A stretch of DNA of 64,000 bases from an uncultured Desulfurococcaceae archaeon (GCA_964641155.1 CAZXJO010000002.1:70096-134095), one strand, 5' to 3'. Numbered from the stretch's first letter, positions 5,730-56,960 are shown. Notes: generated from the letters alone by a model not told the origin. Numbers and translations are program-made.

Positions 5730-5943
5730 CCACCATTCCGGTCTACCACTGGCTTTCACCCCTTCTCCCCTCTTTCCATGGGAGGCCCTCCGCAGTGAAC
5801 GGATGAAGCTCGCATCAATCCGGTACTCACCCACACCAGTTCGGGCTTAGCCTTCCCCCATATATCAGGTGTAGGTCTGAGATACCTCCAAGAACAGATT
5901 TCAGAAGGTGATAAACAAACTTCACGCTACACAAAACTGCTCC
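5730..5943 (-). repeat. Dispersed noncoding repeat family, copy A (full length, about 215 nt)
   Basis: The reverse complement aligns by eye with copies at 13230-13395, 9820-10032, 46967-47189 and 56795-56960. Shared blocks are GGAGC.GTTT.TGTGTAGCGTGAAG.TTGTTTAT, TTCTTGGAGGTA.CTCAGACCTAC, and the core GTTCACTGCGGAGGGCCTCCCATGGAAAGAGG...GAAAG...GGTAGACC. Confidence 0.75.
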
Positions 5944-6437
5944 GTAATCCCGCTAATTTCCCCTTCCGTAAGTTCCTACATCACAGCGTCAACTACTTCG
6001 AACTTGAACGGCCCCGCCCTAGGTCTATACCTTACCTCCTACAATCCATTCCAGGCCCTTATAACGTCATCCCTCCTTCATTCCCCTATCGTCCCAGTAA
6101 CTTCTTGGCTCAGCATTAACTGCGGTTTTGGCGGGGGTAATTCATCATCAAATGTTTCCTTCGTAATAGATTGACGTGTTCCCATAGCCTCAGTTCTCAT
6201 AACGGCCTCCCCGTAAGTGGTTACTGGAATATGTGCTCCAGAAACCTCCGCCCATTGGAGAAGCTCATGAGGTGATATAGCTTTCACACTGTCACATCAT
6301 AATTTACGACCTCTAATGTTGAACGTCATAATTTCATGTGTGAAGGCGTGAGGGCAGACCGTAATTCGACCTGTGATTGAACGTGAAATCTCATTCTAAG
6401 AGGGGTTCGAATTCCAATTAATGGGTGGTGTCATAGA

Positions 6438-9752: not shown

Positions 9753-9819
9753 GTGCGGGATCAGTTAAGGTAATTTTAAACTCCAGGTTTCTTTGAAACC
9801 CTTACCGAAGGAGGTTATG

Positions 9820-10032
9820 AAACTGTTTTTGCTCGACATGGGGTTTATTTGCTGCAACAACTGATGATCGATTTTAAAGGTATCTCAGACCCACGCACTG
9901 CACGTGGAGGAGTAGGCCCGAAGGGGTACGGGCGGATTTGATAAATACCGGGTAGATGTGGTATCATCAGTCGTTCACTGCGGAAGCCCTTCCATGAAAT
10001 GAGGAGAATGAAGGCAACGCTAGGCCAGAACG
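9820..10032 (+). repeat. Dispersed noncoding repeat family, copy C
   Basis: Contains AAGGTATCTCAGACCCACGCACTGCACGTGG and the core GTTCACTGCGGAAGCCCTTCCATGAAATGAGGAGAATGAAGGCAACGCTAGGCCAGAACGG. It starts about 70 nt after the tautomerase stop. Confidence 0.7.
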
Positions 10033-10384
10033 GATTCAAGTTATGATGAAATCAATTGATGCGAATGTACCTAGGCTGACTTAAAAGGGTGCGTTATGGA
10101 GTGCTGCCTCGAACCTCACCTCAACGGTAACTTATGGCCTCTAAGACTAGGGAACCTCTCGCTGAAGGTTTATCCAGGGCCGGGACCTCCATCCACTGTC
10201 CCCGCCACCACGAGGACAGTAGTTATGGGTATTTCAAATGTACCTACGAGGTCTGAGTTGAAGACCCTGTACTGCTTCGGCACCTAAAGCTAATCTCTAT
10301 TATTCTTCTATCATTACTCGTGTAGCGGACGTTTAGATATTGTGTACACTTCAACGTAGATTATGTCGAACCCGCACTACTCGG

Positions 10385-10560
10385 AAGCGTCGCGGGTTTC
10401 ACCGACCCCACACCTATTAAAGGGGTGAACACCCCCTTACGTCATCACTGATAATGACAGCGTTCACATATACTCTCCAACAAGTCCGTGTAGGGGTTGT
10501 GATTTGCTGAATTACAACGGATCAGAGGTGTAGGTCCTTGAACAGCCTAAGTCAGTAGTT
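10385..10560 (-). repeat. Degenerate repeat-family copy in inverted orientation relative to copy C
   Basis: GGATCAGAGGTGTAGGTCCTTGAACAG matches the reverse complement of CTGTTCTTGGAGGTATCTCAGACCTACACCTGAT with a gap. GGGTTTCACC and GGTGAACAC blocks also appear in the expected order. Confidence 0.3.
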
Positions 10561-11060
10561 CCTCAAAACACATGTCATAATTACGCGTACTCAAACCTGG
10601 TCTTAATATCAGTTCAGTAGTGGAACGCCCCTAGTTACCCTAAACTCCTCGATTTCTAACCCTGCTGTATGATGATTAAATCATGAATTAAAGACGTTAC
10701 CCGAATAGTGAAATACTTAATAGCCCTTAAATCACAGTTGATAGGGATATGATGAGACGGCTGTGGTCTTAGTATCCAGTGCTGACCCGTGTTTAAACTG
10801 ACTGCGGCTGGTGTGGATGGAGCAAAACGTTATAGCCCCGGCGATTGCCCGCATAATGCAGGCTACTAAATGTTAAACATCCTTGCTAGGGAGTTAGGTG
10901 GAGTCTTGATAAGTCGTAGCTCTCATCAATCTTCCCCAAATAGATGGCTATCTTCAAATCAAGAATTTGCCATTATAACTAATGATTATTTTGGTATCAT
11001 GTTGACTTATTTATAATCTCCAAAAGTGTAAAATTTAAATTTTCCAATAAGTACCATACA

Positions 11061-12857
11061 TTGATGGTGTCTTATATGGGGAAATCAACACGTAAGTTAG
11101 TACTCTCATGTTTGATTGCATTGTTGGTTGTCGGCTCAGTATCAGGTGTTGTGTCGCTAGCCTACATCGAGAAGTTACCAACTCCAAGGGAGTGTGACCT
11201 GTTAGGCCTTAAGGTTGTGGAGTTGACTAATCCAATACAGAACGAGGTCATTAAGTGGTTCGGGATTGTCGGTGAGGTTTCGACGTTAGCCACAGTTCCT
11301 AAGGACGGTTATTATTCGCTATTCCTTAATAATTCGGGGGAGCACGTAGGGACTCATGTGGATGCTCCGGTGCATTTCTACTATGACGGATTATTCATTA
11401 ACGAGTTGCCGCTGGAGGTCCTTTACGGGGTTGCAGTGGTTGTTGATGCTAGGAAGTATGTCTCACACCCGAACGACACTATAACTATGAGTGAGTTAAT
11501 GGATTGGGAGAGAAGTGTTGGGGTGGAGATTCCTAAAGGTTCCATAGTTTTGATATACACCGGTTGGGCTAATTACTGGGGCCTCTACACTAGTTGGGAG
11601 CAGTATTGGGAGATAGCGAGGGGTTGGCCCGGCCTCTCACCTGATGCTGCCAAGTACCTGGTAAGTAAGGGTATTGTAGGGGTTGGTTTAGATACCTTAA
11701 GCGTGGACCCGGCACCTGCCGCAAACTTCCCAGCACACTACATATTGACCGAAGCGAACATATACATAATTGAGAACATAAACACCAACCTAGAAAAACT
11801 CGCTAATAATGCTGCATTCTTGTTACTAGCCCCCATGAAAACTAAGTATGGTTCCGCTGGCCCAGGCCTTGAATTACTAGCTATTTATGACCCCAACGCA
11901 GACATCCACCTCAATCTAATGCTCGCAAACATGGTCAAGGTGTCATTAGATCAGTCTGAGAAATACGACCTAGCATTCAATGTCGAGAACGGTATACCAG
12001 CATGGTTTACTATATGGTCAGGTTTCAAGGTTTTAGGCAGTCCTAAAGAGATGATAAGTACTTACGGCGCCTACTACGGGTTCTTAACGATGAACGAGCA
12101 TGTGGGCACTCATATCGACGCGCCGGCACACTTCGCAGTTGGTGTTTGGAAGATTGATGAAGTACCTTTAAGCAGGTTCTGGGGGAGGGCTGTGATTATG
12201 GATATGAGGACCTACATAAAGCATCCTAACTACTCAATAACCGCTGAGGATGTGAGGTCGTGGGAGGAGAAGACAGGCATTAGGATAAGCAAGGATGATA
12301 TAGTTCTCGTATATACTGGATGGGCTCGTTACTGGAAAACCTACAAGACATGGGATGAGTACTGGAATGCCATGGGTAGGGGGTTCCCGGGACTATCGCC
12401 TGATGCTGCCAAATACTTAGTGAGTAAGGGGATTAAAGGTATAGCCCTGGACACCCTTAGTGTAGACCCACCGACCCAAGCCGTAGATTTCCCGGCACAT
12501 AAAATCCTAGTAAATGTCAATATATGGATTGGGGAGAACTATAACCTAGCCATACTACCGAAGAGAGACACCACAGCATTTATACTATCATTGCCGGCCA
12601 TGGTCGTTAAAGAAGGTTCCGGAGCTCCTGCAAGACCTATATTAGTCTACAATTTCAACTTAGAATCCATAGTTAATCACTACAAGTATCTTAAAAATTT
12701 AGTGTACAGTGCGAATAGTGCTAAGACCGCACCCGCAAGCACAGCAACCCCCAGCAGACCATTATTGCTCGGCGACACGGCGTTAGCACTCTCACTAGCT
12801 ATGGCGTTCGCTGCAGCACTATACATCACCCTACGTGGGGGGACAAGTCCTACCTAA
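11061..12857 (+). CDS. Secreted, membrane-anchored protein with two tandem putative-cyclase / kynurenine-formamidase-like domains
   Basis: N-terminal signal/anchor (LVLSCLIALLVVGSVSGVVSLA). Two HxGTHxDxPxH metal motifs (GEHVGTHVDAPVHF; NEHVGTHIDAPAHF). The near-identical segments SPDAAKYLVSKGIVGVGLDTLSVDP and SPDAAKYLVSKGIKGIALDTLSVDP show an internal duplication. A Thr/Pro/Ser-rich linker precedes a C-terminal TM helix (LLLGDTALALSLAMAFAAALYITL). Confidence 0.8.
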   Translation: MMVSYMGKSTRKLVLSCLIALLVVGSVSGVVSLAYIEKLPTPRECDLLGLKVVELTNPIQNEVIKWFGIVGEVSTLATVPKDGYYSLFLNNSGEHVGTHVDAPVHFYYDGLFINELPLEVLYGVAVVVDARKYVSHPNDTITMSELMDWERSVGVEIPKGSIVLIYTGWANYWGLYTSWEQYWEIARGWPGLSPDAAKYLVSKGIVGVGLDTLSVDPAPAANFPAHYILTEANIYIIENINTNLEKLANNAAFLLLAPMKTKYGSAGPGLELLAIYDPNADIHLNLMLANMVKVSLDQSEKYDLAFNVENGIPAWFTIWSGFKVLGSPKEMISTYGAYYGFLTMNEHVGTHIDAPAHFAVGVWKIDEVPLSRFWGRAVIMDMRTYIKHPNYSITAEDVRSWEEKTGIRISKDDIVLVYTGWARYWKTYKTWDEYWNAMGRGFPGLSPDAAKYLVSKGIKGIALDTLSVDPPTQAVDFPAHKILVNVNIWIGENYNLAILPKRDTTAFILSLPAMVVKEGSGAPARPILVYNFNLESIVNHYKYLKNLVYSANSAKTAPASTATPSRPLLLGDTALALSLAMAFAAALYITLRGGTSPT

Positions 12858-13229
12858 ACTAAACCTTCCTTTTTCGTCAGTCATAAATCTTAACACTGAC
12901 TCACCACTTCAGCCCCCAGTAAATCGTTTAGCACTCATTAGTCAATCGAAGACCACAGCATCTTCAACGTTTTGACATCATAGGTATTTCGAGATTATTA
13001 CTTAGACAGCTGCATCAAAAATTTGTTAATAGCTTCAAGGGGAGGCAGCAGGATTTCGGACGTATTGCGAAAGATGGCTCAGGGTGAGGAAGGTGGAATA
13101 GTAGCTGTTTCAATTGCCTTCAACCCCCACATCAACAGGCTTAAACTATTTTACAATAACTGTTGCAGAGATATGTCGAAAATAGAGGGCGAGGGGTCTA
13201 GGAGGCCTTGAGATTTTTTTTGGGGTCAT

Positions 13230-13395
13230 GGAGCTGTTTCTGTGTAGCGTGAAGCTTGTTTATTACCTTGTGAAATGTGTTCTTGGAGGTACTTCAGACC
13301 TACGCCCGGTATGTGGAGACTCCACCCGTTCACTCCGAAAGCCCTCCCATGAAATGAGGAGGGAAGGGATGAAAGTCAACGCTAGACCAGCAACG
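13230..13395 (+). repeat. Dispersed noncoding repeat family, copy B (short form lacking the roughly 70-nt central module)
   Basis: GGAGCTGTTTCTGTGTAGCGTGAAGCTTGTTTATTACCTTGTGAAATGTGTTCTTGGAGGTACTTCAGACCTACGCC is followed by GTTCACTCCGAAAGCCCTCCCATGAAATGAGGAGGGAAGGGATGAAAGTCAACGCTAGACCAG. At the deletion junction, GTGGA-gac-TCCAC forms a hairpin. Confidence 0.75.
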
Positions 13396-13522
13396 ATCTA
13401 TAAACATCTTCCAACATTGATGGAGGTGGTGTGGCGATGCCGGAAACTTGGGCTCAGTGAAGCGCTACCCTCAACGGCTGAGAGGAGCTTAACTACGTAG
13501 GCCAGTACAATGGTATAGTGAG

Positions 13523-13603
<81 letters not shown>

Positions 13604-13664: not shown

Positions 13665-13800
13665 CGACCCCTCATGAGGGACTTCAGTCCACATGCAAAT
13701 TTATGAGGCTGACGTTCATTGGTCGTATCCTTCACTCAGTGGAGGGAATCGCTGGGTTTAGGGATGTGGGTCGTCCTGGGAAGGATCGCAAGTCTTAAGC
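13665..13800 (+). repeat. Degenerate repeat-family copy on the other side of tRNA-Val
   Basis: GAGGGACTTCAGTCCACATGC resembles GGAGGTACTTCAGACCTACGC of copy B. CCTTCACTCAGTGGAGGG resembles the core CGTTCACTGCGGAGGG. Confidence 0.3.
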
Positions 13801-14825: not shown

Positions 14826-15040
14826 CCTAGGTACTTCCATACATCGAACGCTCGACGGTCCCGTGCAAACCATGCCCCACCTGAGGCAGTTTCACATGCG
14901 CAGTCCGCTTTACCACGCCATAAACAGCCCTAGATCGCTAAGGGTTAGGGGTGGAGCCGCTGTAACGCGGGACGTGGGTAATGGTCCGAAGCCGGGGGCA
15001 GAGAACCCTTGAGGTTGTGGGGTACTAAACCAATGAAACT
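14826..15040 (+). repeat. Degenerate repeat-related sequence (copy F)
   Basis: ACGCGGGACGTGGGTAATGGTCCGAAGCCGGGGG parallels ACCCGCACATTGTACGTGGGATGGGACCGAATCTGAGTGGG (copy E) and CACGTGGAGGAGTAGGCCCGAAGGGG (copy C). AGGTACTTCCATAC at the 5' side resembles AGGTACTTCAGACCTAC. Confidence 0.25.
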
Positions 15041-17934: not shown

Positions 17935-20085
17935 CTACCCCTTAACCTTCTTTAAGACGTTTCCCTCCACCACAACATCATTCCTAATAGCCGTGTAAAC
18001 GTTGATGAACCATTTCAAGGCTTCCTTAGACAGCGGGATATCGTCCAGCGACAAGCTACCGTACTTCAACCTCTCATCGAAGTATTTAATGAAGAGTTGT
18101 AAGTAATTGGTATAACGTAGAGTTTTATCGAAGATTTCCAGGTAAAATAAATGCTCGTATAGTAGCCCCAACCACTTAGAAGACATCCAATCAATTAAGT
18201 CGTAGCAGGTGGGGAGATTTCGGAAGACCGTAAAATCTTTCGAAGATTTACTCATCACTGAAGGAGACACAGGTGTTAGAATCCTATAATCCAACCCCAG
18301 GTTATCTGCAACACTAATGAGGAGTTTTTCCTTGATGTTCAGCTCCTGTAATATTAAATCTGACAGCCTGATTAGGCAGTCTCCTAAAGCACTGCATCTA
18401 ATCTTCATATCATTAAGGTGCTTAAACGTTAGGATTCCTCCTTGCGGGAATGACCCTAAGTTTGTGGAGACCTCCTTAAGCAGCTCAAGTAACTCCCCCC
18501 GCACCTTATGCGTGAACTCCTCGATGACCCCACCTATGGAGTCCTTCAAGCGTGTTGCCCTCTCAACAATGGCAGAGGCTTTTGAGGTGACCTCATGGCT
18601 GCTCAAGAGGTTTTCTAGGACATCAGCATACGCTTTGGTGATGTCTAAGAGTAGTATATTTTCAGGGCATTGCATCGAGGTATCAACGCTTACCCTAACT
18701 GCTAATACCTCAGCAATTATCCGAGCTAGGTCGTTCAGGGTCTTGATATAAGACTCACATATTATTTTCAATGCCTTCCTCAATCCCACACCAACACTTG
18801 GGATGTCCTCAAAACGTTTGATGCTTTCCAATAATTTAACCAAATCATCTAGCTCCGCGTTCCTAAGACCGCTGATGCTAACCCATTTATCGTACGATTC
18901 CCTCACCTCCTTAACGATTGATTGATATGCATCGACCACCTGATGCCTAGTATCAACTAACTCTTTGCCCACCTTTTCCAGTAGGGCTGCATAGCCCTTA
19001 ACCCAGTTTAATGAGGGAGTCGGCTTCCCCACCCGCTCTTCAACATGATCCAGCTCCCTTTCCAATTCTCTCAGCTTGTCTTGAAATGCGCTGACCTTAA
19101 CCCCGAGAAGGGGGTCCACAATTAACTCGTTTAAGACTGAACTGCAAGCGTTTAATTCGTCCCTAAGGCTGTGGATGTTTCTAACTAAGTCATCACTGAG
19201 ACGTACCAGTTCTCTATTAAGATTCCATGAACAACTCAACATGGAAACAAAAAATGACGGGATTGACGCGTAAATTACTGATAGGTACGATTCCACAGGT
19301 TTGGCCACCGTGACCAGGCCCGTAATTACGTGAATGAGGGTTAACACAGCTAACGACATACCGTACGAAACAGAGGAGTAAGGCAGGAGGTGTCTGGGCT
19401 CGGTCATCTCAGGTAGATAATGCCTTAAGAACTTATGGTACACCGTATTGAAGATCACGTAGACGAGGCAAGCTATGAGCATGGTGATAAGTAAGTTCAG
19501 CTCACCCCCACTAACGTACAAGACGTTAGATAGTTTCATGTGAGGAACTGCGGATACATCAGATACTGACACTGGGATAAGCAGGTACGGGAGGTACACT
19601 AGTAGGGCAATGCCTGCAAATCTCAGACCATCAGTAGCAGTTTTAAGGAGTAAGATGTGAGGGGTCATCAAAGCGAACGGCAGGAGTCCTCCGAAATCTA
19701 AGAACGCTGAAGGTAAAGAAATTATTATCAGCACTTGAGCTAAGGAAATTCCGAGATCGCTCCGAAGGGCTAAGATACTTGCGGCCAGGCCGGAAACTAT
19801 GGGTGTTATGAACATCATGTAAGGTCCTAGTGCCGACTTGAAGACGAGGTTGGGAGCTGTCCCGTATGCATATATGAAAACTAACGCCAAGAACAAATAC
19901 GTCGCAGCTAACCCTTTTCTGATGTCTTTGTAGATTATGACTGAGGTGATGGCCAACGACGCCGCGTAGAGTGCGGAGAACGTGACAAAGGTAATAACGC
20001 CCTTACTAAGCCCTACTAGATACGTGAGTATGTTGAATGAGATGATGCATAAAACCAGTGCTGATAGTTCGTAGTACCTCATCAC
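17935..20085 (-). CDS. Hypothetical polytopic membrane protein (about 9-10 TM in the first ~290 aa) with a roughly 430 aa cytoplasmic helical/coiled-coil-like domain
   Basis: 716 aa. The N-terminus is hydrophobic (LVLCIISFNILTYLVGL ... IPSFFVSMLSCSW). The C-terminus is rich in heptad-like helices (LRDELNACSSVLNELI, LRELERELDHVEERV). No Walker, HExxH, DEAD or Cys-cluster motifs were found. Its start overlaps the upstream stop (ATGA at 20082-20085). Confidence 0.65.
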   Translation of the reverse strand: MMRYYELSALVLCIISFNILTYLVGLSKGVITFVTFSALYAASLAITSVIIYKDIRKGLAATYLFLALVFIYAYGTAPNLVFKSALGPYMMFITPIVSGLAASILALRSDLGISLAQVLIIISLPSAFLDFGGLLPFALMTPHILLLKTATDGLRFAGIALLVYLPYLLIPVSVSDVSAVPHMKLSNVLYVSGGELNLLITMLIACLVYVIFNTVYHKFLRHYLPEMTEPRHLLPYSSVSYGMSLAVLTLIHVITGLVTVAKPVESYLSVIYASIPSFFVSMLSCSWNLNRELVRLSDDLVRNIHSLRDELNACSSVLNELIVDPLLGVKVSAFQDKLRELERELDHVEERVGKPTPSLNWVKGYAALLEKVGKELVDTRHQVVDAYQSIVKEVRESYDKWVSISGLRNAELDDLVKLLESIKRFEDIPSVGVGLRKALKIICESYIKTLNDLARIIAEVLAVRVSVDTSMQCPENILLLDITKAYADVLENLLSSHEVTSKASAIVERATRLKDSIGGVIEEFTHKVRGELLELLKEVSTNLGSFPQGGILTFKHLNDMKIRCSALGDCLIRLSDLILQELNIKEKLLISVADNLGLDYRILTPVSPSVMSKSSKDFTVFRNLPTCYDLIDWMSSKWLGLLYEHLFYLEIFDKTLRYTNYLQLFIKYFDERLKYGSLSLDDIPLSKEALKWFINVYTAIRNDVVVEGNVLKKVKG

Positions 20086-21038
20086 TGACCCGTAACCTTA
20101 GCTAAGTCTTCCAAGGAGATCTGCAATTTCCGCTCCCTAACTAGCTCGTAAGATTTAGCTATAAACTTTCGTAATGTGAGAATTAAGTTGTTGCAGGGTT
20201 CAACGGTTAATACCGTAAGTAGGTCGCTCTTGGACGGAATGCTAATCAGAATTAATTCCCTCACATTTAACCTGTTTTTAAGGTAGTTGATCTGGGAGCT
20301 CAAATCCTTTAAGTTATGAGCGACTGCTATTAAGGCGGAGTCTATGGAGTTTGTATAGTCATGCATTAAATGGTGCGAGAACATGACGATGTTTGCAAGA
20401 CTACCGAAGACCTCCAAATCGGCTTTTGGGAAGCAAGTGATGATGCCTAGCCTCCCGTGCTCGCTCAGGTACTTCTCAATATCGGAAGAAATCTTAAGTA
20501 TGTTAACCACGCATGCTGAAAACGTTTCCTCACCACCAACAAGTTTTAAGTAACTTATCAAGTCTTCGTGAATTAGAAGCATTAAGTCGGCTATCCCCTC
20601 CTTCGTTGCGAGTGCTAGGTATGTCAATAGGTTAATAAAGTCATTATCGGATGGATTGGAAGGCACCCTCAACACAGTAATGGTCCTCGAGCTAACGTTG
20701 ACTTTCTTCACCTCCCTCATCAGTTCATATGAGAGCAGTAGGTTGTGAGGGTTTGCGTCTATAAATGCGAGTGTCTCTAAGACATCACTGGTCACACATA
20801 ACCTCATGTTCGAAATGGGGTCGTAAGACTGGTCTCCAAGCCTTGAGAACCAGTAACCACCTTCAAGGGCAGGCTGGGTTGCGGAGCTGTTGGCGGGTAG
20901 GTATACCGTGCTATCACTCCCTAGTAGCGACCTTAAAACGTTAAGGTCGTCCCTAGCTGATGCAAGCACTAACCTGGAGTAGGTTTTGAAGTCCACAGAG
21001 TCTATGAGCCTGATCAGCCTATCTAGGTAATAGCTCAT
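20082..21038 (-). CDS. Hypothetical soluble protein, first gene of the orphan operon
   Basis: 318 aa with mixed alpha/beta character, no Walker A and no other recognisable motif. It is translationally coupled to the downstream membrane protein gene. Confidence 0.6.
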   Translation of the reverse strand: MSYYLDRLIRLIDSVDFKTYSRLVLASARDDLNVLRSLLGSDSTVYLPANSSATQPALEGGYWFSRLGDQSYDPISNMRLCVTSDVLETLAFIDANPHNLLLSYELMREVKKVNVSSRTITVLRVPSNPSDNDFINLLTYLALATKEGIADLMLLIHEDLISYLKLVGGEETFSACVVNILKISSDIEKYLSEHGRLGIITCFPKADLEVFGSLANIVMFSHHLMHDYTNSIDSALIAVAHNLKDLSSQINYLKNRLNVRELILISIPSKSDLLTVLTVEPCNNLILTLRKFIAKSYELVRERKLQISLEDLAKVTGQ

Positions 21039-27758: not shown

Positions 27759-30044
27759 TCATGAGCTAACCCTGCTGATCTCCCCAACGTTCTCAACTTT
27801 TATGATCTTATCTGCTATGTTCATTACACTTTCGTCGTGTGTCACCACTATTACCTGCCTTAATGACTTGCTTAGCTCCTTGATGATTTCAAACACCTGC
27901 TTCCTCCTCTCCTCGTCCAAGTAGACCGTAGGTTCATCAAGTATTAACGTTGTGGGGGCCCTACCCATAATTAGTTCAGCGAGTGCTAATCGTAACGCAA
28001 TCGAAATACCAACCCTCTCACCACCGCTTGCATTGCCTATCGGTAACTCACCGCCTAAGACCTTCACACGTATTTGGAAGTCGTCGCCGATTTCGATCGG
28101 CCTTAACCCAAGCTTAGTTAATATCCTATTAGCCCTCCTCTCCAACTCATCCCTCGCCAGCCTAGTCAGTTCCCTGGCTATCAAGCCGTTCTTACCTAGG
28201 TACCTCAAGCAGAATTCGTGAATCACGCTATACGCTTTGATTTGGGCTTCAATCTCCTTAATCCTTTTCTCGATTTCCTTTATCTCAGCATCTAAGACAT
28301 TCATCCTACCATCAACTTCCTTCAGCAACGCTTCTAACGCCTTCTTATTGCCATCAACCTCAAGTAACTTCTTGCTTATGCTTTCTGACTCGGAATTAAG
28401 TTCCCTACTTACCTCGGCCAATCTCTTTCTTGCGGAGTCTAAGTCCTTTAAATCTCGAGGCACGCCTACATTAGGAACTAGCTTAGCAAATATCTGAGCC
28501 AACCTGTCTTGAATATATGCGGCGTCCAAACCCGCGATATCTGAGGGCTGCTCTCCCTTCAAGTTGTTTAGGAATTCTAACTCACCTCTATAGCTGACTA
28601 ACTTGTTTTTAAGTGTGCTAAGGGACTCCACGCACTCGTTAAGTGATGGGGGACTCATGAAACTTTCAGCTAAGCCACTACATAGCTGGAATGCTTTATT
28701 ATTTAACTGGTTCAACTTCTCCGCAGTTTTCTGAAGAGATTTTTCTACAACTTCGGCTTTACTTATCAACTTACCCAATTCTTCGGAAGCGGTTTGAGCG
28801 ACAGCGATTTTCATCTTGCTCGCCGTATGCTCGTTACTTAACTCCTTGATTCTTTCATTCAGCTTGACGAGTTCTTGGGTTAGATGGCTCTTTATGACTG
28901 CTGGGTCGCTTATTAACGAACCACATATCGGGCATTCCCTCCTACTCTCGAGCTTTTCAACATAAACTGAGTACAGTTCTTTGAGCGCTTTAGCGTGGTT
29001 GATTGAACCTGCAAGTTCCTCACTCCTCGCTCTAAGCTGAGCTAGTAAGGTGCTTAACGATTCATAGCTGTCGACATTAACCCCTAGCTTACTTGAGGTG
29101 CCCTGCAGTAATGCCGTGATCCTACTCCTAATGGATGCTAGTTCACCAACTAAGTTCTCATGCTCCCTACGAGTTTGTAAGTAATCGTTGACATCCCATC
29201 CGTCCAGGATGGCGAGCTTAGATACTAAGTTCTCTAACTCCTTAACCCTCCGAACGATGATTAAGGGCTTCAGCTTGTCGAGCAGTTCTAAGCCCTCATT
29301 GGACAACCTTGCCTTCTCAGCTATGGTGTCGTACTTCTTCTTTAAATCCTCAATGACCTTCTCAGCTTCTAATATCTTACTCATCAACATGTTTTTCCTG
29401 GACTTAAGCTCTGACAACTCATTCTTCTTGCTGTTCAGTAGTACTTTCTCGCTTTCCAACCTACCTTCCAACCTATCCCTCTTGCTGGTGTACTTCTTAA
29501 CCACCTCTAAGGACTTCTCCAAGTAGCTGAGGCCTAGAAGTGAGAGGATCCACTCCCTCCTCTCGGAGTCGCTCACATCCACTATCTTAGTTAGCTCGTC
29601 TTGGAGTGATATCACCGTACTCCTCACAATACTCCTTAAATCCTTAGCAGTAACGGCTGTCAGACCTAAAATTCTACCGAGTTCGTTGACGACGTTCGAC
29701 ACACCAACACTCTTAACCCTCCTACCCTCCCTATCTAAGAGGTATAGGGCGGCTTGTGCCGGTGAATCAATCCATATCTCCCTGAAGACGGAGTACTTAA
29801 CCCCCCCAACGTCTAGTAAAACTTCGATTTCTCCCTTCCTCTTACCTCTCATCACTAAGAACTCCTTCTTACGTCCCCTGATGTCTATTGATGCGTCAGT
29901 GAATAACGCGGTGTAAATGGAATCTATAATGGATGATTTACCGGCGCCGTTCGGGCCCACTATAGCCACTATTCCATCCGGAAATGACACTTCGGAACTC
30001 TCATGGGATAATATGTTGGTGAGTCTTACGTGCCTGATAATCAC
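27759..30044 (-). CDS. rad50: Rad50 DNA double-strand-break repair ATPase
   Basis: Walker A is GPNGAGKSS, with long coiled coils and a zinc hook (CPICG). The signature is SGGERVGISIALRLAL and Walker B is LILDEPTVYLD. It overlaps the mre11 stop by 4 nt. Confidence 0.95.
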   Translation of the reverse strand: MIIRHVRLTNILSHESSEVSFPDGIVAIVGPNGAGKSSIIDSIYTALFTDASIDIRGRKKEFLVMRGKRKGEIEVLLDVGGVKYSVFREIWIDSPAQAALYLLDREGRRVKSVGVSNVVNELGRILGLTAVTAKDLRSIVRSTVISLQDELTKIVDVSDSERREWILSLLGLSYLEKSLEVVKKYTSKRDRLEGRLESEKVLLNSKKNELSELKSRKNMLMSKILEAEKVIEDLKKKYDTIAEKARLSNEGLELLDKLKPLIIVRRVKELENLVSKLAILDGWDVNDYLQTRREHENLVGELASIRSRITALLQGTSSKLGVNVDSYESLSTLLAQLRARSEELAGSINHAKALKELYSVYVEKLESRRECPICGSLISDPAVIKSHLTQELVKLNERIKELSNEHTASKMKIAVAQTASEELGKLISKAEVVEKSLQKTAEKLNQLNNKAFQLCSGLAESFMSPPSLNECVESLSTLKNKLVSYRGELEFLNNLKGEQPSDIAGLDAAYIQDRLAQIFAKLVPNVGVPRDLKDLDSARKRLAEVSRELNSESESISKKLLEVDGNKKALEALLKEVDGRMNVLDAEIKEIEKRIKEIEAQIKAYSVIHEFCLRYLGKNGLIARELTRLARDELERRANRILTKLGLRPIEIGDDFQIRVKVLGGELPIGNASGGERVGISIALRLALAELIMGRAPTTLILDEPTVYLDEERRKQVFEIIKELSKSLRQVIVVTHDESVMNIADKIIKVENVGEISRVSS

Positions 30045-31204
30045 TTAGCCCTCACCAACTTCTCCAGCCTACTAATGAGTTCTTGGTCGTTTGCTAGGGC
30101 GGTTATTAGGGTCTCAACGTATCCCTCATCATCGCAGCCTTTTATGATGTTTAAAACGTAGTCGGCTATTTTAGAGTCCTTTAATAAGTTATGGACTACT
30201 GTATCGAGAGTTGGTGCCGCGGTGGGTTCCTCGTAGTGGGGTTCCTCAAAATCTTCAGAGACTCCTGGGGTTTCCAATCTGTATGTAATTATCTTACCGC
30301 TATCCCTCAAATAACTTAAGTGTTCGATCATCGCCTTGGGGTTCGAGCTCAGCACGTCTTTCCCCATCACCTTAGCGTAGAGAATGGGGGGCTTAGCGAA
30401 CTCGTCGTAATTTACCTTACTCAAAACCTTGAGTAATTCATTGTACGCGCTCGCGGTGACCACCAACCATCTCCTAAACTTGCTTAATTTAACCCAATGC
30501 ACTACGGCATCTGTGGTGCTTAAGTCAATTAGGGCTACGAATCTTTCATCACCGCTTTCAAGGTAATCCAATGCCTCCGTGGACCCCGGATAAACTACCG
30601 GTGTCCCACCGTACTCAGTCTTATACCTGAGGTGGTAGTCACCCAAGGCAACGTAATTGTAGTCCCTACTCCCCAGTTCCGCTAATGAGAGATGGGCTCC
30701 CGGGATGTTTAACTCCTTAAGTAGGAGGTGAGCCATTAAAACCCTCCGAGCCGTCTCCGGTTTCCGGACCCCCCTAATTTGCACCTGCATGGTCTGCGGA
30801 TCCGCGTATGGTATGGCGGTGATGCCTAGCTCGTTGCTGCGGAGCTTAAACACATGTGTTGCCGGCTCAGCAACGGCCAACACTTTAGCCAGACCTACCT
30901 CTTCCAGAACCCTTATAGGCGATAGAGCAGATGTCTTAGGCTGGTCATGCTGTCCGGCAATGACTAAAAACCCTATGCCGTTATCCCTTAACTTCTTCAA
31001 GGACTTAAACGCGTATAAGTATGTTTGGGGATTAGGTCGGGGGTCGTCGAAGAGGTCCCCGCAATGCAGTACGGCGTCCACCCTTTCCTTAACCGCTATC
31101 TCAATAACTTCATCGAAGACTTCGTAGAAGTCTAATTCCCTCTCCCTCAGCTTGCCGGGCTTGCTTGAACCTAAATGTGTGTCAGATACGTGGAGTAACT
31201 GCAA
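30041..31204 (-). CDS. mre11: Mre11 nuclease
   Basis: Phosphoesterase motifs LLHVSDTHLG, HCGDLFD, IAGQHD, and GDYH. Confidence 0.95.
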   Translation of the reverse strand: MQLLHVSDTHLGSSKPGKLRERELDFYEVFDEVIEIAVKERVDAVLHCGDLFDDPRPNPQTYLYAFKSLKKLRDNGIGFLVIAGQHDQPKTSALSPIRVLEEVGLAKVLAVAEPATHVFKLRSNELGITAIPYADPQTMQVQIRGVRKPETARRVLMAHLLLKELNIPGAHLSLAELGSRDYNYVALGDYHLRYKTEYGGTPVVYPGSTEALDYLESGDERFVALIDLSTTDAVVHWVKLSKFRRWLVVTASAYNELLKVLSKVNYDEFAKPPILYAKVMGKDVLSSNPKAMIEHLSYLRDSGKIITYRLETPGVSEDFEEPHYEEPTAAPTLDTVVHNLLKDSKIADYVLNIIKGCDDEGYVETLITALANDQELISRLEKLVRAK

Positions 31205-31210
31205 CGCGGG

Positions 31211-32824
31211 TTACGCCTCCCATTCCTTAATCAATGACCTCCTCTCCAACGCCTTGCCTATGGATTCCCTACCTTCCCTCCAGATTTTCACGATTTCCGG
31301 GGTTACACCAGCTCTCTTACCTAGGTGTCTATCAACCCTGATATATGCGGGGTATTTACCAATCCATTCCCCCATCAATATTGCGTGTCCCGGCGGGAGT
31401 GTTGGCAAGATCTCAACATACTCATCACCTAATATGTCGGTTAGCTCCATAACGGTTGATTTATCATCCTTCTGAACCAGCTTTAGGAATGCGTAACTCT
31501 GAACCTGGGACACTACGTTGACATCCAACGCCCTAGGTCTTTGGCTAACTACCGCCAACATACCTCCGAACTTCCTCCCCTCCCTGATGAACCTCTGGAG
31601 GACGCCCTTAGATTTAGTATTGACCCCACTCCCAAGGAATATGTGTGCCTCCTCTACAACCAGTAACGTAGGTATGGGGGCGCGTTCGGTACCCCTACCC
31701 CCTTCTTTGAGGTACCATAGAAGGTCCTCCGCAACTACCTTAAGCATGAAGTCCTTGTCATCGTCCGTGAACGTGGACACGTCAATTACCACGATCTTGC
31801 CATTGCCTACCACTTCGCTGACTTTACGGGCCTCTAAGCTAATCCTATGCCACTCGAAGAAATCATCTATTTTATCCTCAACGTCCGCTAATGTTTTATC
31901 GCTGTCCCCGTCATGTCCGACATCCCTAAGGTACTTCTTGAGAACTTCCTTATACGCTTCCTTAGGGTCCTCCACTTGGGCGTTACTCGGACTCCCCTCT
32001 TTGAAGATCTCCTTCACCACTTGGGCGTAGGGCTTTCTATTCATCTTCACTCTCCCCAGTATTTCATCGTTCAACTTCCTTAACGCGTTCTTGAGAATCC
32101 TTCTTTGCCTGGTGGCAGCACCCTCAGGGATTATGAAGTTCGTGAGTAAGCTGACCGGTGTTTCCACGGGGTTTATCGCCGCATCGTAAACTACTACACT
32201 CACGTTGTCGGGGTCTTCACTAACTAGGTTGCCGTACTCGCCGTGGACATCAAATATGGCCACCGAACCACCTACTTGTGCAATCCTATCAGCTAGGACG
32301 GCTACGAGGTTACTCTTCCCCGAACCGGTTGTACCCGTAATTAGTAAGTGTTTAGCTAATGAGTTCACGTTAACACTTATTCTTAAGTTGTTGAAGCCGA
32401 CTAAGGAGCCTACTTCAACACCTGCACCGGGTTCGCAGTCGTAAATAGTCTTCAGGTGTTTAAGTTCTGCTAGGTATACAGGAGTCTCAGGCGGGGGTGG
32501 GTATTCAGGGTTGTCAGCCCGTCCCCTACTTATGTCGGCTATGATGACGGCCTTCATATAGCTCTCGCTCTTTAAGCTCCTTAGTAATGACGTTGTCTCG
32601 TACATGGGGAGGTTTGGGGTGGTTAGCACCGGCACTACTGACCTGTATAGGCAGGAACCTATGATTCCAACTACCTCCCTATCAACTTCCTCTCCGAAGC
32701 TTGACCTGTCCCTTGCCTTAAACTTGATGTAGATGTAGGTACCTGGAGGGATGGGGGTTAACGCTTTAATATCAACTTCGGTCGGTTTCGAAACCTCACC
32801 AACTATACCTATGGGTTGGCTCAT
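31211..32824 (-). CDS. herA: HerA hexameric DNA helicase/translocase
   Basis: Walker A is ITGTTGSGKSN and Walker B is LLVVEEAH. It has an N-terminal HAS-barrel-like region and lies between nurA and mre11. Confidence 0.9.
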   Translation of the reverse strand: MSQPIGIVGEVSKPTEVDIKALTPIPPGTYIYIKFKARDRSSFGEEVDREVVGIIGSCLYRSVVPVLTTPNLPMYETTSLLRSLKSESYMKAVIIADISRGRADNPEYPPPPETPVYLAELKHLKTIYDCEPGAGVEVGSLVGFNNLRISVNVNSLAKHLLITGTTGSGKSNLVAVLADRIAQVGGSVAIFDVHGEYGNLVSEDPDNVSVVVYDAAINPVETPVSLLTNFIIPEGAATRQRRILKNALRKLNDEILGRVKMNRKPYAQVVKEIFKEGSPSNAQVEDPKEAYKEVLKKYLRDVGHDGDSDKTLADVEDKIDDFFEWHRISLEARKVSEVVGNGKIVVIDVSTFTDDDKDFMLKVVAEDLLWYLKEGGRGTERAPIPTLLVVEEAHIFLGSGVNTKSKGVLQRFIREGRKFGGMLAVVSQRPRALDVNVVSQVQSYAFLKLVQKDDKSTVMELTDILGDEYVEILPTLPPGHAILMGEWIGKYPAYIRVDRHLGKRAGVTPEIVKIWREGRESIGKALERRSLIKEWEA

Positions 32825-33873
32825 AAGAACTCACCCAGCAGCTCACGTCCAGTCGGTATTGACGAAAGACCTAACTTGTAGAGAACTGTTCTAAACTCGG
32901 TGTTGCTCAGTCTACACATGTTGTGCGCTACCTTGAGGGGGTCCGGATAACCGGTGTGTGAGTATGGATATATCTCGCTCACCAACTCAACTAATTCATC
33001 AATACCTACCTTACCCGGGATGGAGATCTGATACGGCTGCGTTGACGGGTTGAAACTCACGTAGGTGATCGTCACAGGGGTAAATGGGCTTAGGTCCACG
33101 TCTAACTCGGTTAGAGGCCGTGGCAGGTTATCGCGTTCTACGTGAACTGGTTGAAGTATGTAGGGGGTTTTGGGCAACCTCCCTAACCTCCTTAAAGCGT
33201 TGATTAACATTAAGTCATTAGTAACTGCTTTAACCTTCTTCGGCACGTCATGAGACAGAAGTATGTCTGTGTAGTAGTTCCTCATAAGGGTTTTAGATAT
33301 GAATAAAGGTTTAGCAACACGCGTGACTTCTACGATGCCTGAGTAGATTTCATACCAGATATCTCTAATACTTTTATAGAAGGCTGGGTAAAAACCCTTA
33401 GGTATTTTCTTGTTGCTATAGCCCCACAAAAACGAAATGAGTGAGCCATCGAATAAGACGACTTCACCATCAGACAATAACTCAATCATTGACTTCACCT
33501 CCAAGGTTCGGGACGTAAGTTTTAAGATTCTCTCAACTAATTCGCTGGAGGCCCCACCACCGGGAGTCGGTGTGTGGTAACCTGCGAATGATTTAACGAT
33601 TAATCTACTGTCCGGCGGGTCTTTTAGGGAAGCCCTTACCGCCACTGACTGTATCGCATACACTGTGGCGAACGATAGCTTCTTAACTACCCTGCTAGAG
33701 TCGCTGGCAGCTATGTGGGACGGCTCACTCGCAGGCCGTGATTTGATGGGGTACGCGTTCACATCACGTAAAAAATTACGTAAGACATCTACCGAGCTAA
33801 CTTTACTGAGTAAGTCGCGCATAGCTGATGAGAGGTCGTTAATCAACAAATCATGTAGTGGAATCGTATACAC
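32821..33873 (-). CDS. nurA: NurA 5'-3' nuclease
   Basis: 350 aa with the N-terminal catalytic Asp context IAASDSSRV. GTG start, and a 4-nt overlap (ATGA) with herA. The operon context with herA-mre11-rad50 supports the call. Confidence 0.8.
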   Translation of the reverse strand: MYTIPLHDLLINDLSSAMRDLLSKVSSVDVLRNFLRDVNAYPIKSRPASEPSHIAASDSSRVVKKLSFATVYAIQSVAVRASLKDPPDSRLIVKSFAGYHTPTPGGGASSELVERILKLTSRTLEVKSMIELLSDGEVVLFDGSLISFLWGYSNKKIPKGFYPAFYKSIRDIWYEIYSGIVEVTRVAKPLFISKTLMRNYYTDILLSHDVPKKVKAVTNDLMLINALRRLGRLPKTPYILQPVHVERDNLPRPLTELDVDLSPFTPVTITYVSFNPSTQPYQISIPGKVGIDELVELVSEIYPYSHTGYPDPLKVAHNMCRLSNTEFRTVLYKLGLSSIPTGRELLGEFL

Positions 33874-39664: not shown

Positions 39665-39765
39665 AGAGTTAGTGTTGTTAACGTAACCCTTCATAATATG
39701 AGGGCGGGCTGTGAACGTTTTAGTTCCCCGAGCGACGGTATATGTCCTATGTTGAGAAATTGTTG
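39665..39765 (-). repeat. Short degenerate fragment of the dispersed repeat core
   Basis: The minus strand reads CGTTCACAGCCCGCCCTCATATTATGAAGGG, compared with the core CGTTCACTGCGGAAGCCCTTCCATGAAATGAGG. Confidence 0.25.
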
Positions 39766-46961: not shown

Positions 46962-46966
46962 TTACA

Positions 46967-47189
46967 GTTCTGGTCTAGCATTTACTTCCATCCCTTCTTC
47001 ATTTCATGGGACGACCTCCGCCGTGAACTGGTTAGGACGGCGCATCCATCCAGTACTTATCGAATCCACCCGCGTCCGTTCGTGCTTAGCTCCCCTACAT
47101 CTCGGGCATAGGTCCGAGGCACCCCCAAGAGCAACCATCACCGCGGCAGTAAACAAATTTTACGGCATAAAACAGCTTCATAGCCACTC
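46967..47189 (-). repeat. Dispersed noncoding repeat family, copy D
   Basis: The reverse complement reads GAAGCTGTTTTATGCCGTAAAATTTGTTTAC...GGGGTGCCTCGGACCTATGCC...CCAGTTCACGGCGGAGGTCGTCCCATGAAATGAAGAAGGGATGGAAGTAAATGCTAGACCAGAAC. It begins 6 nt after the stop of the AbrB-PhoU-like gene. Confidence 0.7.
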
Positions 47190-47387
47190 GACAGCCACTG
47201 TTGATTGAGTAGGGTCTGTGAAGGGACAAGGTTTCGAGATCTAAGATTCCTAGGAATGGGGCTGGGCGGGGTGATTGAGGATGTTGATATATTTAAAATA
47301 TTTTTGTAAATTTTTCCATATGTTGAATATATATAACTATATATAAGCTTAAATACCATACTGATAAAAATATTATTGGGTGGTGGA

Positions 47388-56794: not shown

Positions 56795-56960
56795 TCATGG
56801 GGCTTGAAGATCTACTACTGCAGCTAAGGGTCAATTTTGAAGGTATCTGAGACCCGCACATTGTACGTGGGATGGGACCGAATCTGAGTGGGTATGGAGT
56901 GGGTTGGTAAGTATTGGATAAATGCATCGTCTTTATCCGTCATGAATATCCTTACGTTCT
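56795..56960 (+). repeat. Dispersed noncoding repeat family, copy E (5' two-thirds, 3' core degenerate)
   Basis: GGGGCTTGAAGATCTACTACTGCAGCTAAGGGTCAATTTTGAAGGTATCTGAGACCCGCACATTGTACGTGGGATGGGACCGAA is collinear with copy C (GGGGTTTATTTGCTGCAACAACTGATGATCGATTTTAAAGGTATCTCAGACCCACGCACTGCACGTGGAGGAGTAGGCCCGAA). Confidence 0.6.

Follow-up and report, generated by a model that had tools for sequence, protein, structure and literature searches.

The 64-kb stretch of DNA analysed here (the window) contains five copies of a dispersed repeat, which we call A to E (Table 1). As an earlier note on this DNA had described, all of them are intergenic; four of the five lie between convergent genes, one of these genes being a tRNA, and the pairs flanking these four copies are DHDPS/DUF169, cyclase/tRNA-Val, PhoU-like/DHODH and Thi4/TatD. 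The tRNA-Val(TAC) of the window (13523–13600, minus strand) is of the archaeal type. Beyond the relics in the copies themselves, tblastn found no tnpA or tnpB in the 64 kb (E > 3), in agreement with the note, which had seen neither a transposase nor tnpB in the window.

Several other features were seen along the way. The ~1 kb downstream of copy C (10060–11060) holds no ORF longer than 63 aa and no Rfam match; this gap is unusually long for this compact genome and is unrelated to the repeat family. In the 598-aa ORF at 11061–12857, a 92-nt direct repeat (11619–11710 and 12378–12469, 72% identity) is an internal duplication, since the protein has two Pfam Cyclase domains. Four adjacent ORFs on the same strand (27759–33873, minus strand) include, by Pfam, a Rad50-like SMC ATPase (27759–30044) and a HerA helicase (31211–32824), and the group looks like the herA-mre11-rad50-nurA cluster of thermophilic archaea, with 30041–31204 and 32821–33873 as the putative Mre11/NurA genes. 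This DNA-repair cluster and the archaeal type of the tRNA mark the host as an uncultivated archaeon.

Repeat copies within the window

The repeat family is genuine, with five statistically solid copies. An nhmmer search with the five-copy alignment gave exactly five places at E ≤ 1e-43 and one weak partial match at ~20.7 kb; copies A, B, C and D were placed by nhmmer and a covariance model, and copy E by an HMM built from A–D only, all nearly where the earlier note had put its five clear copies. The conserved 3′ core that the note had given to every clear copy is present in A–D and is missing from copy E, which is a 5′ fragment. In shuffles of the window, the 3′-core consensus pattern is expected 0.00 times and the 'GGTA.CTCAGACC' motif pattern 0.05 times, while the window itself has four and five occurrences, respectively. 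Four further, degenerate pieces had also been proposed (about 10385–10560, 13665–13800, 14826–15040 and 39665–39765), and these could not be recovered: four HMMs gave no match there, even at E ≤ 100 on the segments alone, and the covariance model with its filters off found nothing.

Table 1. Position, search evidence and putative parts of the repeat copies. LE, left end; RE, right end; A2 HMM, the RE/tnpB-3′ HMM.
Feature	Position	Strand	Search evidence	Putative parts
Copy A (most complete element)	5733..5955	-	covariance model 75.4 bits; A2 HMM 5826–5721 (6e-18) and 5887–5830 (8e-7)	LE ~5906–5955; TnpB zinc-ribbon relic + ωRNA stem 1 ~5830–5887; ωRNA 3′ domain + RE 5733–5828; RE ends GGAATGG
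Copy B	13219..13396	+	covariance model 89.4 bits; A2 HMM 2e-25; LE HMM E=0.0034	LE 13221–13270; Zn-ribbon relic 13285–13318; ωRNA 3′ domain + RE 13298–13396; ends GCAACG
Copy C	9810..10033	+	covariance model 72.5 bits; A2 HMM 1.7e-17 and 0.019	degenerate LE; relic 9868–9937, remodelled into two local hairpins; ωRNA 3′ domain + RE 9943–10033; ends GAACGG
Copy D	46965..47191	-	covariance model 76.2 bits; A2 HMM 4.6e-17 and 4e-6	degenerate LE; relic 47076–47124; ωRNA 3′ domain + RE 46965–47058
Copy E (truncated fragment)	56796..56940	+	A–D-only HMM E=2.1e-11, model positions 39–176	
Possible sixth fragment	20688..20736	-	covariance model 24.8 bits, E ~1e-4; nhmmer E=2e-4 to 1e-3	

Pairwise identity among the window copies is 67–83%, and the divergence is fairly even along the element (0.54–0.81 per 20-nt block). 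No reading frame is common to the copies, as the note had stated: in A, C and D every one of the three frames is interrupted by stops, and only copy B has an open frame (frame 1), whose 90-aa ORF (13228–13500) is not conserved in the other copies. Copy E consists of the relic and the middle part alone, without a recognisable 3′ core or RE, and the covariance model matches it only at E = 0.83 (56909–56957). The possible sixth fragment is a 49-nt match to the RE hairpin and tail, lying in frame within a 318-aa ORF (20082–21038, minus strand) that has no Pfam match. It could be a chance match, or an RE fragment that was absorbed into, or created, an ORF, and its membership in the family is uncertain.

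Relatives outside the window

A scan of one genome per species with a degenerate 30-nt core pattern, in which 21 bases are specified, matched 26 contigs of archaeal MAGs, a sample that a fixed pattern of this kind biases toward conserved cores. The MAGs are labelled Archaeoglobales/Archaeoglobi, Bathyarchaeota, Nezhaarchaeales, Methanodesulfokora, Methanomethylicaceae, Nitrososphaeria and Jordarchaeales, and one of them (SJ3.Bin61) carries at least 11 copies. The same pattern was found in 114 further stretches of JGI and ENA metagenomes, giving a total of 141 core occurrences in 140 related loci, all from archaeal MAGs and metagenomes of the hot-spring type. The core pattern is absent from IMG/VR by pattern scan, and the plasmid and phage collections gave no blastn match to a full-length relative.

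The family is apparently spread across several archaeal phyla, provided that the MAGs are correctly binned. Loci L002–L027 have near-identical right ends in MAGs of very different archaeal phyla (Archaeoglobi, Bathyarchaeia, Korarchaeia, Methanomethylicia, Nitrososphaeria and Asgard) from hot-spring samples, which is due either to a recent transfer between phyla or to errors of binning.

The core is the right end of an IS607-family element

In several loci, a gene for a resolvase-type protein and, after it, one for a TnpB-like protein lie upstream of the core. In intact relatives of ~1.87 kb, the core forms the right end of an IS607-family element, and five loci (L035, L079, L091, L114 and L141) have an intact tnpA-tnpB pair with the core at its end. 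The full-length layout is an LE of ~64 nt, followed by tnpA, tnpB and the RE. The LE starts with GG and has a TATA-like box (TTTATAAA) ~25 nt upstream of the tnpA ATG. The tnpA product is a 206-aa serine recombinase with Resolvase and HTH_17 domains, scoring 224.6 bits on the NCBIfam transpos_IS607 equivalog (cutoff 110), and its nearest solved structure is the catalytic domain of the Sulfolobus ISC1926 TnpA (E = 2.8e-50). The tnpB product (~380–400 aa) has the D/E/D RuvC motifs and a CxxC...CxxC zinc ribbon, and scores 152.8 bits on guided_TnpB, the NCBIfam model of the RNA-guided subfamily (cutoff 100); its nearest solved relatives are Cas12f and TnpB proteins.

The tnpB stop codon falls 45–71 nt past the point where the core begins, the distance being 45 nt in three of the five intact elements. 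The commonest form of the core encodes ...VHPEGPPMKRGGKG*, followed by ~30 nt ending in ...GCTAGACCAGAACGG, and the RE terminus of the intact relatives reads ...CCAGAACGG. Conservation stops exactly at this ...GAACGG terminus, beyond which the sequences from different sites are unrelated. The earlier note had offered a relic right end or ωRNA of a TnpB element of the IS200/IS605 type as one possibility for the repeat; the core does lie at a tnpB 3′ end, but the parent is IS607 and not IS200/IS605 proper.

A 20-nt LE segment of the full-length element L035 (510–529, CGAAGCAGTTTCTTCCTAGC) is 80% complementary to a segment of its tnpB 3′ region (2215–2234), the latter being deleted from the window mini-elements. 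This pair may be a TnpA-binding motif common to both ends.

Deletion series and origin of the window copies

The related loci form a deletion series, with ~8 full-length, ~12 intermediate and ~56 short loci. The distance from LE to core is ~1.78 kb in the full-length loci and only 143–501 nt in the ~56 short ones, in which tblastn found either tnpA fragments of 15–101 codons fused to the last 15–75 tnpB codons, or no coding remnant. Most related loci are of the same internal-deletion type as the window copies.

Both ends of the parent element can be found in the window copies with models built from other elements. An HMM of the LE, for which only six tnpA-bearing elements were used, four of these being fully intact, matches the window at 13221–13270 (E = 0.003) and 5959–5906 (E = 0.027), the places of the 5′ modules of B and A, respectively. 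The RE/tnpB-3′ HMM, built only from 29 relatives outside the window, matches A–D at E = 2e-25 to 5e-17. The 'GGTA.CTCAGACCTAC...ATGTGG' motif is matched separately by the 29-element HMM in A (E = 8e-7) and D (E = 4e-6), and the motif aligns with codons specifying ...GTSSLCPxCG, which is the first half of the zinc ribbon in TnpB. These matches, together with the deletion series, bear out the description of the repeat as a MITE-like element.

The three parts that the earlier note had distinguished can now be assigned. The 5′ module is the transposon left end with its TATA-like box and does not belong to an RNA, and the 'GGTA.CTCAGACCTAC' motif is what remains of the zinc-ribbon codons of TnpB. 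The hairpin-rich middle corresponds to the zinc-ribbon coding region of tnpB, now decayed, which doubles as the 5′ stem of the ωRNA. The 3′ core consists of the last 15 tnpB codons and ~30 nt, and the middle and the core between them make up the ωRNA scaffold with the RE terminus.

From copies A, C and D, ~70 nt of the full-length tnpB 3′ region are missing, namely the second CxxC and the RuvC-III DRD motif, and the closest relatives of these copies, the metagenomic loci L009, L032 and L096, have the same deletion. An additional segment is missing from copy B, ~55–70 nt being absent between ATGTGG repeats and the 3′ strand of stem 1 being gone with it. Its junction lies at an ATGTGG(GG) motif that is present twice in full-length elements, and the sequence is consistent with a deletion between these short direct repeats, which would have removed half of stem 1. 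The missing middle segment of copy B had been noticed before and taken for a separable stem-loop domain; the segment is indeed missing, but what was removed is half of a stem.

A composite form of ~500–600 bp also recurs among the related loci, in which an LE is followed by the first 90–100 tnpA codons, a second LE-like segment, and the tnpB tail with the RE (L006, L022, L031, L043, L059–L061, L065–L067, L069, L092, L101, L105, L129 and L139). The LE matches in these loci lie at about -170 to -220 and about -370 to -570 from the core. This form looks like a mini-element that recombined with or inserted into tnpA and was then propagated.

Junctions and ends of the elements

At 47 distinct insertion sites, the LE's own GG is preceded by two bases that are G in 47 of 47 and G in 45 of 47 cases, and positions -3 to -10 are unconserved. 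At these sites the RE ends in GAACGG, and the left and right flanks share nothing else. The target-site duplications for which the earlier note had proposed to look were not found at the junctions of these 47 sites, the element ends showing the conserved GG instead. A repeat search for terminal inverted repeats gave no inverted pair in A or B, and none at the termini of the full-length L035. In the window, copy B retains GG|GG at its LE and copy C retains GAACGG at its RE, the other junctions being mutated. IS607 has been reported to have a GG target and GG termini, with neither target-site duplications (TSD) nor terminal inverted repeats (TIR) (PMC6188088), and since the invariant GG and the lack of both TSD and TIR match these hallmarks, we assign the ends to IS607.

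In loci L017, L038, L087 and L090, the LE is directly preceded by GGGGGTTA(A/G)GG, a flank that duplicates in part the start of the LE, GGGGTTAG; this suggests insertion beside or into the terminus of an earlier copy.

A predicted ωRNA scaffold with covarying helices

In elements that encode TnpB, the ωRNA spans the tnpB 3′ end and the RE, with the flank as guide, and RNA-guided cleavage and homing have been demonstrated for IS607 elements (PMC10690162, PMC11061315). RNAalifold on 29 full-length REs predicted a long stem (stem 1) inside the zinc-ribbon codons, a closing helix between CCGUUC at the core start and the terminal GAACGG of the RE, and a hairpin CCCUCCC/GGAGGG; a pseudoknot between GGGG upstream of the core and CCCC inside the core was added by inspection. 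The hairpin that the earlier note had read as compensatory (GGAGG..CCTCC against GGAAG..CTTCC) occurs in A and C only, whereas family-wide CCCUCCC pairs with the downstream GGAGGG.

In the 29 full-length sequences, 96.1% of cells are paired, compared with 38–49% for slid partners. Their covariation score is 0.133 as against 0.076 when shuffled, and none of 500 shuffles reaches it, so that the covariation check proposed in the note came out positively, with the caveat that the structure was derived from the same alignment and that many of the counts may trace to few evolutionary events. Individual pairs illustrate this. Stem-1 pair 109/155 is AU in 12 and GC in 11 sequences, its bases being the synonymous third-codon positions of Leu and Tyr, and in a sub-family the pseudoknot changes from GGGG/CCCC to GCCG/CGGC, which is non-synonymous (Gly to Pro, and Pro to Gly). 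That the pseudoknot swaps its pairs despite the change of amino acids points to a constraint at the RNA level.

In a second set, made up of 54 non-redundant 3′ domains with the window copies among them, the paired cells amount to 94.2%, compared with 47–57% for slid partners. The closing helix of copy D (CAGUUC/GAACUG) is compensatory relative to CCGUUC/GAACGG, and its pseudoknot reads GCCG/CGGC, that of copy B being GGAG/CUCC. In copy A, nine of the ten stem-1 pairs are kept although substitutions destroy a zinc-ribbon Cys codon, and the minimum-free-energy fold retains the family stem 1 with an inner hairpin. This hints at some selection on the structure after coding was lost, and fits pure decay less well. 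In C and D the long stem is replaced by local hairpins, and the fold-energy z-scores of the window copies (-0.9 to +0.9) are no better than those of shuffles. An additional terminal hairpin, present in some relatives and variable in sequence, pairs in every case with the GCTAGACC segment (judged by eye); its variants include GGUCUAG/CUAGACC, GAGCG/CGCUC and a 12-bp version.

In the whole window, only the tRNA-Val passes the Rfam gathering thresholds. At E ≤ 10 there are chance-level matches only, both on the copies and on L010 (a tnpA/tnpB-bearing relative with an internally deleted tnpB), and RAGATH-18 is not matched; the Rfam search suggested in the earlier note thus returned no family for the copies. 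Since no Rfam family matches, the ωRNA assignment rests on position, architecture and covariation, and we conclude that the scaffold at the tnpB-RE boundary is a predicted archaeal IS607 ωRNA/reRNA, absent from Rfam. The sequence diverges immediately after ...GAACGG, which would be expected of a scaffold with a guide derived from the flank behind it.

Discussion

Taken together, the repeats are very probably non-autonomous (MITE-like/PATE-like) internal-deletion derivatives of an archaeal IS607-family insertion sequence. The homology of both ends, the deletion series, the junction signature and the covarying scaffold are demonstrated here. By analogy with known elements, TnpA acting in trans would move the mini-elements, with strand exchange at GG and no target duplication. 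The scaffold would be transcribed together with the adjacent flank, which would serve as the guide; in a mini-element, transcription may start from the TTTATAAA-like box of the LE, which in copy B would place the start near the stem-1 relic. TnpB in trans would cut the emptied donor site, and repair would restore the element. The window copies are at present most likely inactive, decaying relics, since they are diverged, contain stops, have lost or remodelled modules (B, C, D and E) and have no tnpA or tnpB nearby. Their survival mainly between convergent genes is most likely due to the fact that insertions there harm least and rarely hit promoters.

Is the retained structure a sign that the mini-elements still function as stand-alone guide-RNA genes, with a promoter in the LE driving an ωRNA-like transcript for a TnpB in trans or for a domesticated relative (in homing, retention or host regulation)? 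The deletions do drop the coding-only linker and keep stem 1, the pseudoknot, the closing helix and the hairpin (copy A and loci of the L032/L096 type); compensatory changes are seen in non-coding copies (the closing helix of D, the pseudoknot of B and stem 1 of A); the TATA-like box of the LE would put the transcription start near the start of stem 1; and trans-acting ωRNA PATEs have been proposed for IS200/IS605 (PMC10055086). However, B and E are without whole modules, the stems of C and D are remodelled, the low identity among the copies is spread almost uniformly along the element, the fold energies are no better than those of shuffles, TnpB is absent from the window, and the flank-derived 'guides' of the copies have no second match within it. 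We therefore consider such genes, whose RNA structure would be under selection and not in decay, unlikely. It is doubtful, too, that the mini-elements are minimal 'promoter + ωRNA' cassettes, an architecture spread across several archaeal phyla of hot springs, in which the tnpA promoter would fire into the scaffold, the structure would stay under selection once coding is lost, and a TnpB encoded elsewhere would serve the homing and retention of the non-autonomous copies.

A cis-regulatory leader, terminator or riboswitch-like RNA of the neighbouring host genes could be suspected, since in many related loci an ORF on the same strand starts 80–650 nt downstream, and the copies in the window border on the 3′ ends of genes. 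In related loci, however, the downstream genes are housekeeping genes without relation to one another (among others GMP synthase, RNA polymerase B, SRP54 and the CCA-adding enzyme), for which reason the leader was rejected; the neighbours in the window are convergent, and the sequence is that of a transposon end, leaving this explanation very improbable. Equally hard to sustain is an IS200/IS605-proper PATE, mobilised as ssDNA by a Y1 tyrosine transposase via subterminal hairpins: TnpB and ωRNA are common to IS605 and IS607, but all full-length relatives carry a serine recombinase that passes the IS607 equivalog, the junctions are GG/GG without a TAM-like conserved flank, and no Y1 transposase was seen. 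A family of small-protein genes, for which the 90-aa ORF of copy B, opening at the ATG of the 5′ module, and the ATG at the beginning of several copies might speak, has practically no chance of being right. Stops interrupt each of the three frames of A, C and D, this ATG lies inside the LE, where full-length elements read TTAC/TTAT, and the frame of copy B is the +1 frame of the tnpB tail; the coding hypothesis was rejected on the stops, which are found in every frame except frame 1 of copy B.

With the repeats read as IS607-family derivatives, five unannotated intergenic repeats are explained as transposon relics and not as a new RNA class. The structure-annotated alignment could help to identify the guide RNAs of TnpB, and their gene-less derivatives, in archaea of hot springs. 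The deletion series also indicates which tnpB 3′ parts are dispensable for the RNA and the ends, which is mildly useful for minimising thermophilic TnpB scaffolds. No current model is changed.

Comparison with known systems

Like the classical MITEs of Sulfolobus (SM1–SM4), the window copies are small non-coding deletion derivatives of an insertion sequence, present in multiple intergenic copies; unlike these, they have neither TIR nor TSD, and hence can be called 'MITE-like' only. The archaeal IS607 elements (ISC1926, ISC1904 and ISC1913 of Sulfolobus, and MJ0014) have the same order of tnpA (MerR-like HTH and serine recombinase) and tnpB as our full-length relatives, with the same GG at both junctions and in the target, and without TSD or TIR. 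The window copies, in contrast, are without both genes, which makes them derivatives and not autonomous members.

The predicted scaffold resembles the TnpB ωRNA/reRNA of ISDra2 and of bacterial IS607 (RAGATH-18, ISFba1) in spanning the region from the tnpB 3′ end to the RE, followed by a variable flank, and in its multi-helix architecture, with a pseudoknot (predicted here) next to the guide-proximal helix. The G-rich junction is similar to the bacterial IS607 TAMs, which are AGGAG and GAGGG (PMC11061315); only GG is conserved on the LE side here, however, so that any TAM would be very short.

A parallel in form may be drawn with the PATEs of G. stearothermophilus, protein-less IS200/IS605 derivatives that retain ωRNAs (PMC10055086). 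They are likewise short, gene-less and multi-copy, with both ends and the ωRNA kept, and presumably rely on TnpA and TnpB supplied in trans. The parent of the PATEs uses a Y1 transposase and ssDNA hairpin ends, whereas the parent described here uses a serine recombinase and dsDNA exchange at GG; the copies here are archaeal, and those in the window are much more decayed. Protein-less derivatives with an ωRNA are already known for IS200/IS605, and IS607 is already known in archaea; to these the present analysis makes the modest additions of an uncatalogued archaeal IS607 ωRNA, predicted from its sequence, a natural deletion series, and an apparent multi-phylum spread.
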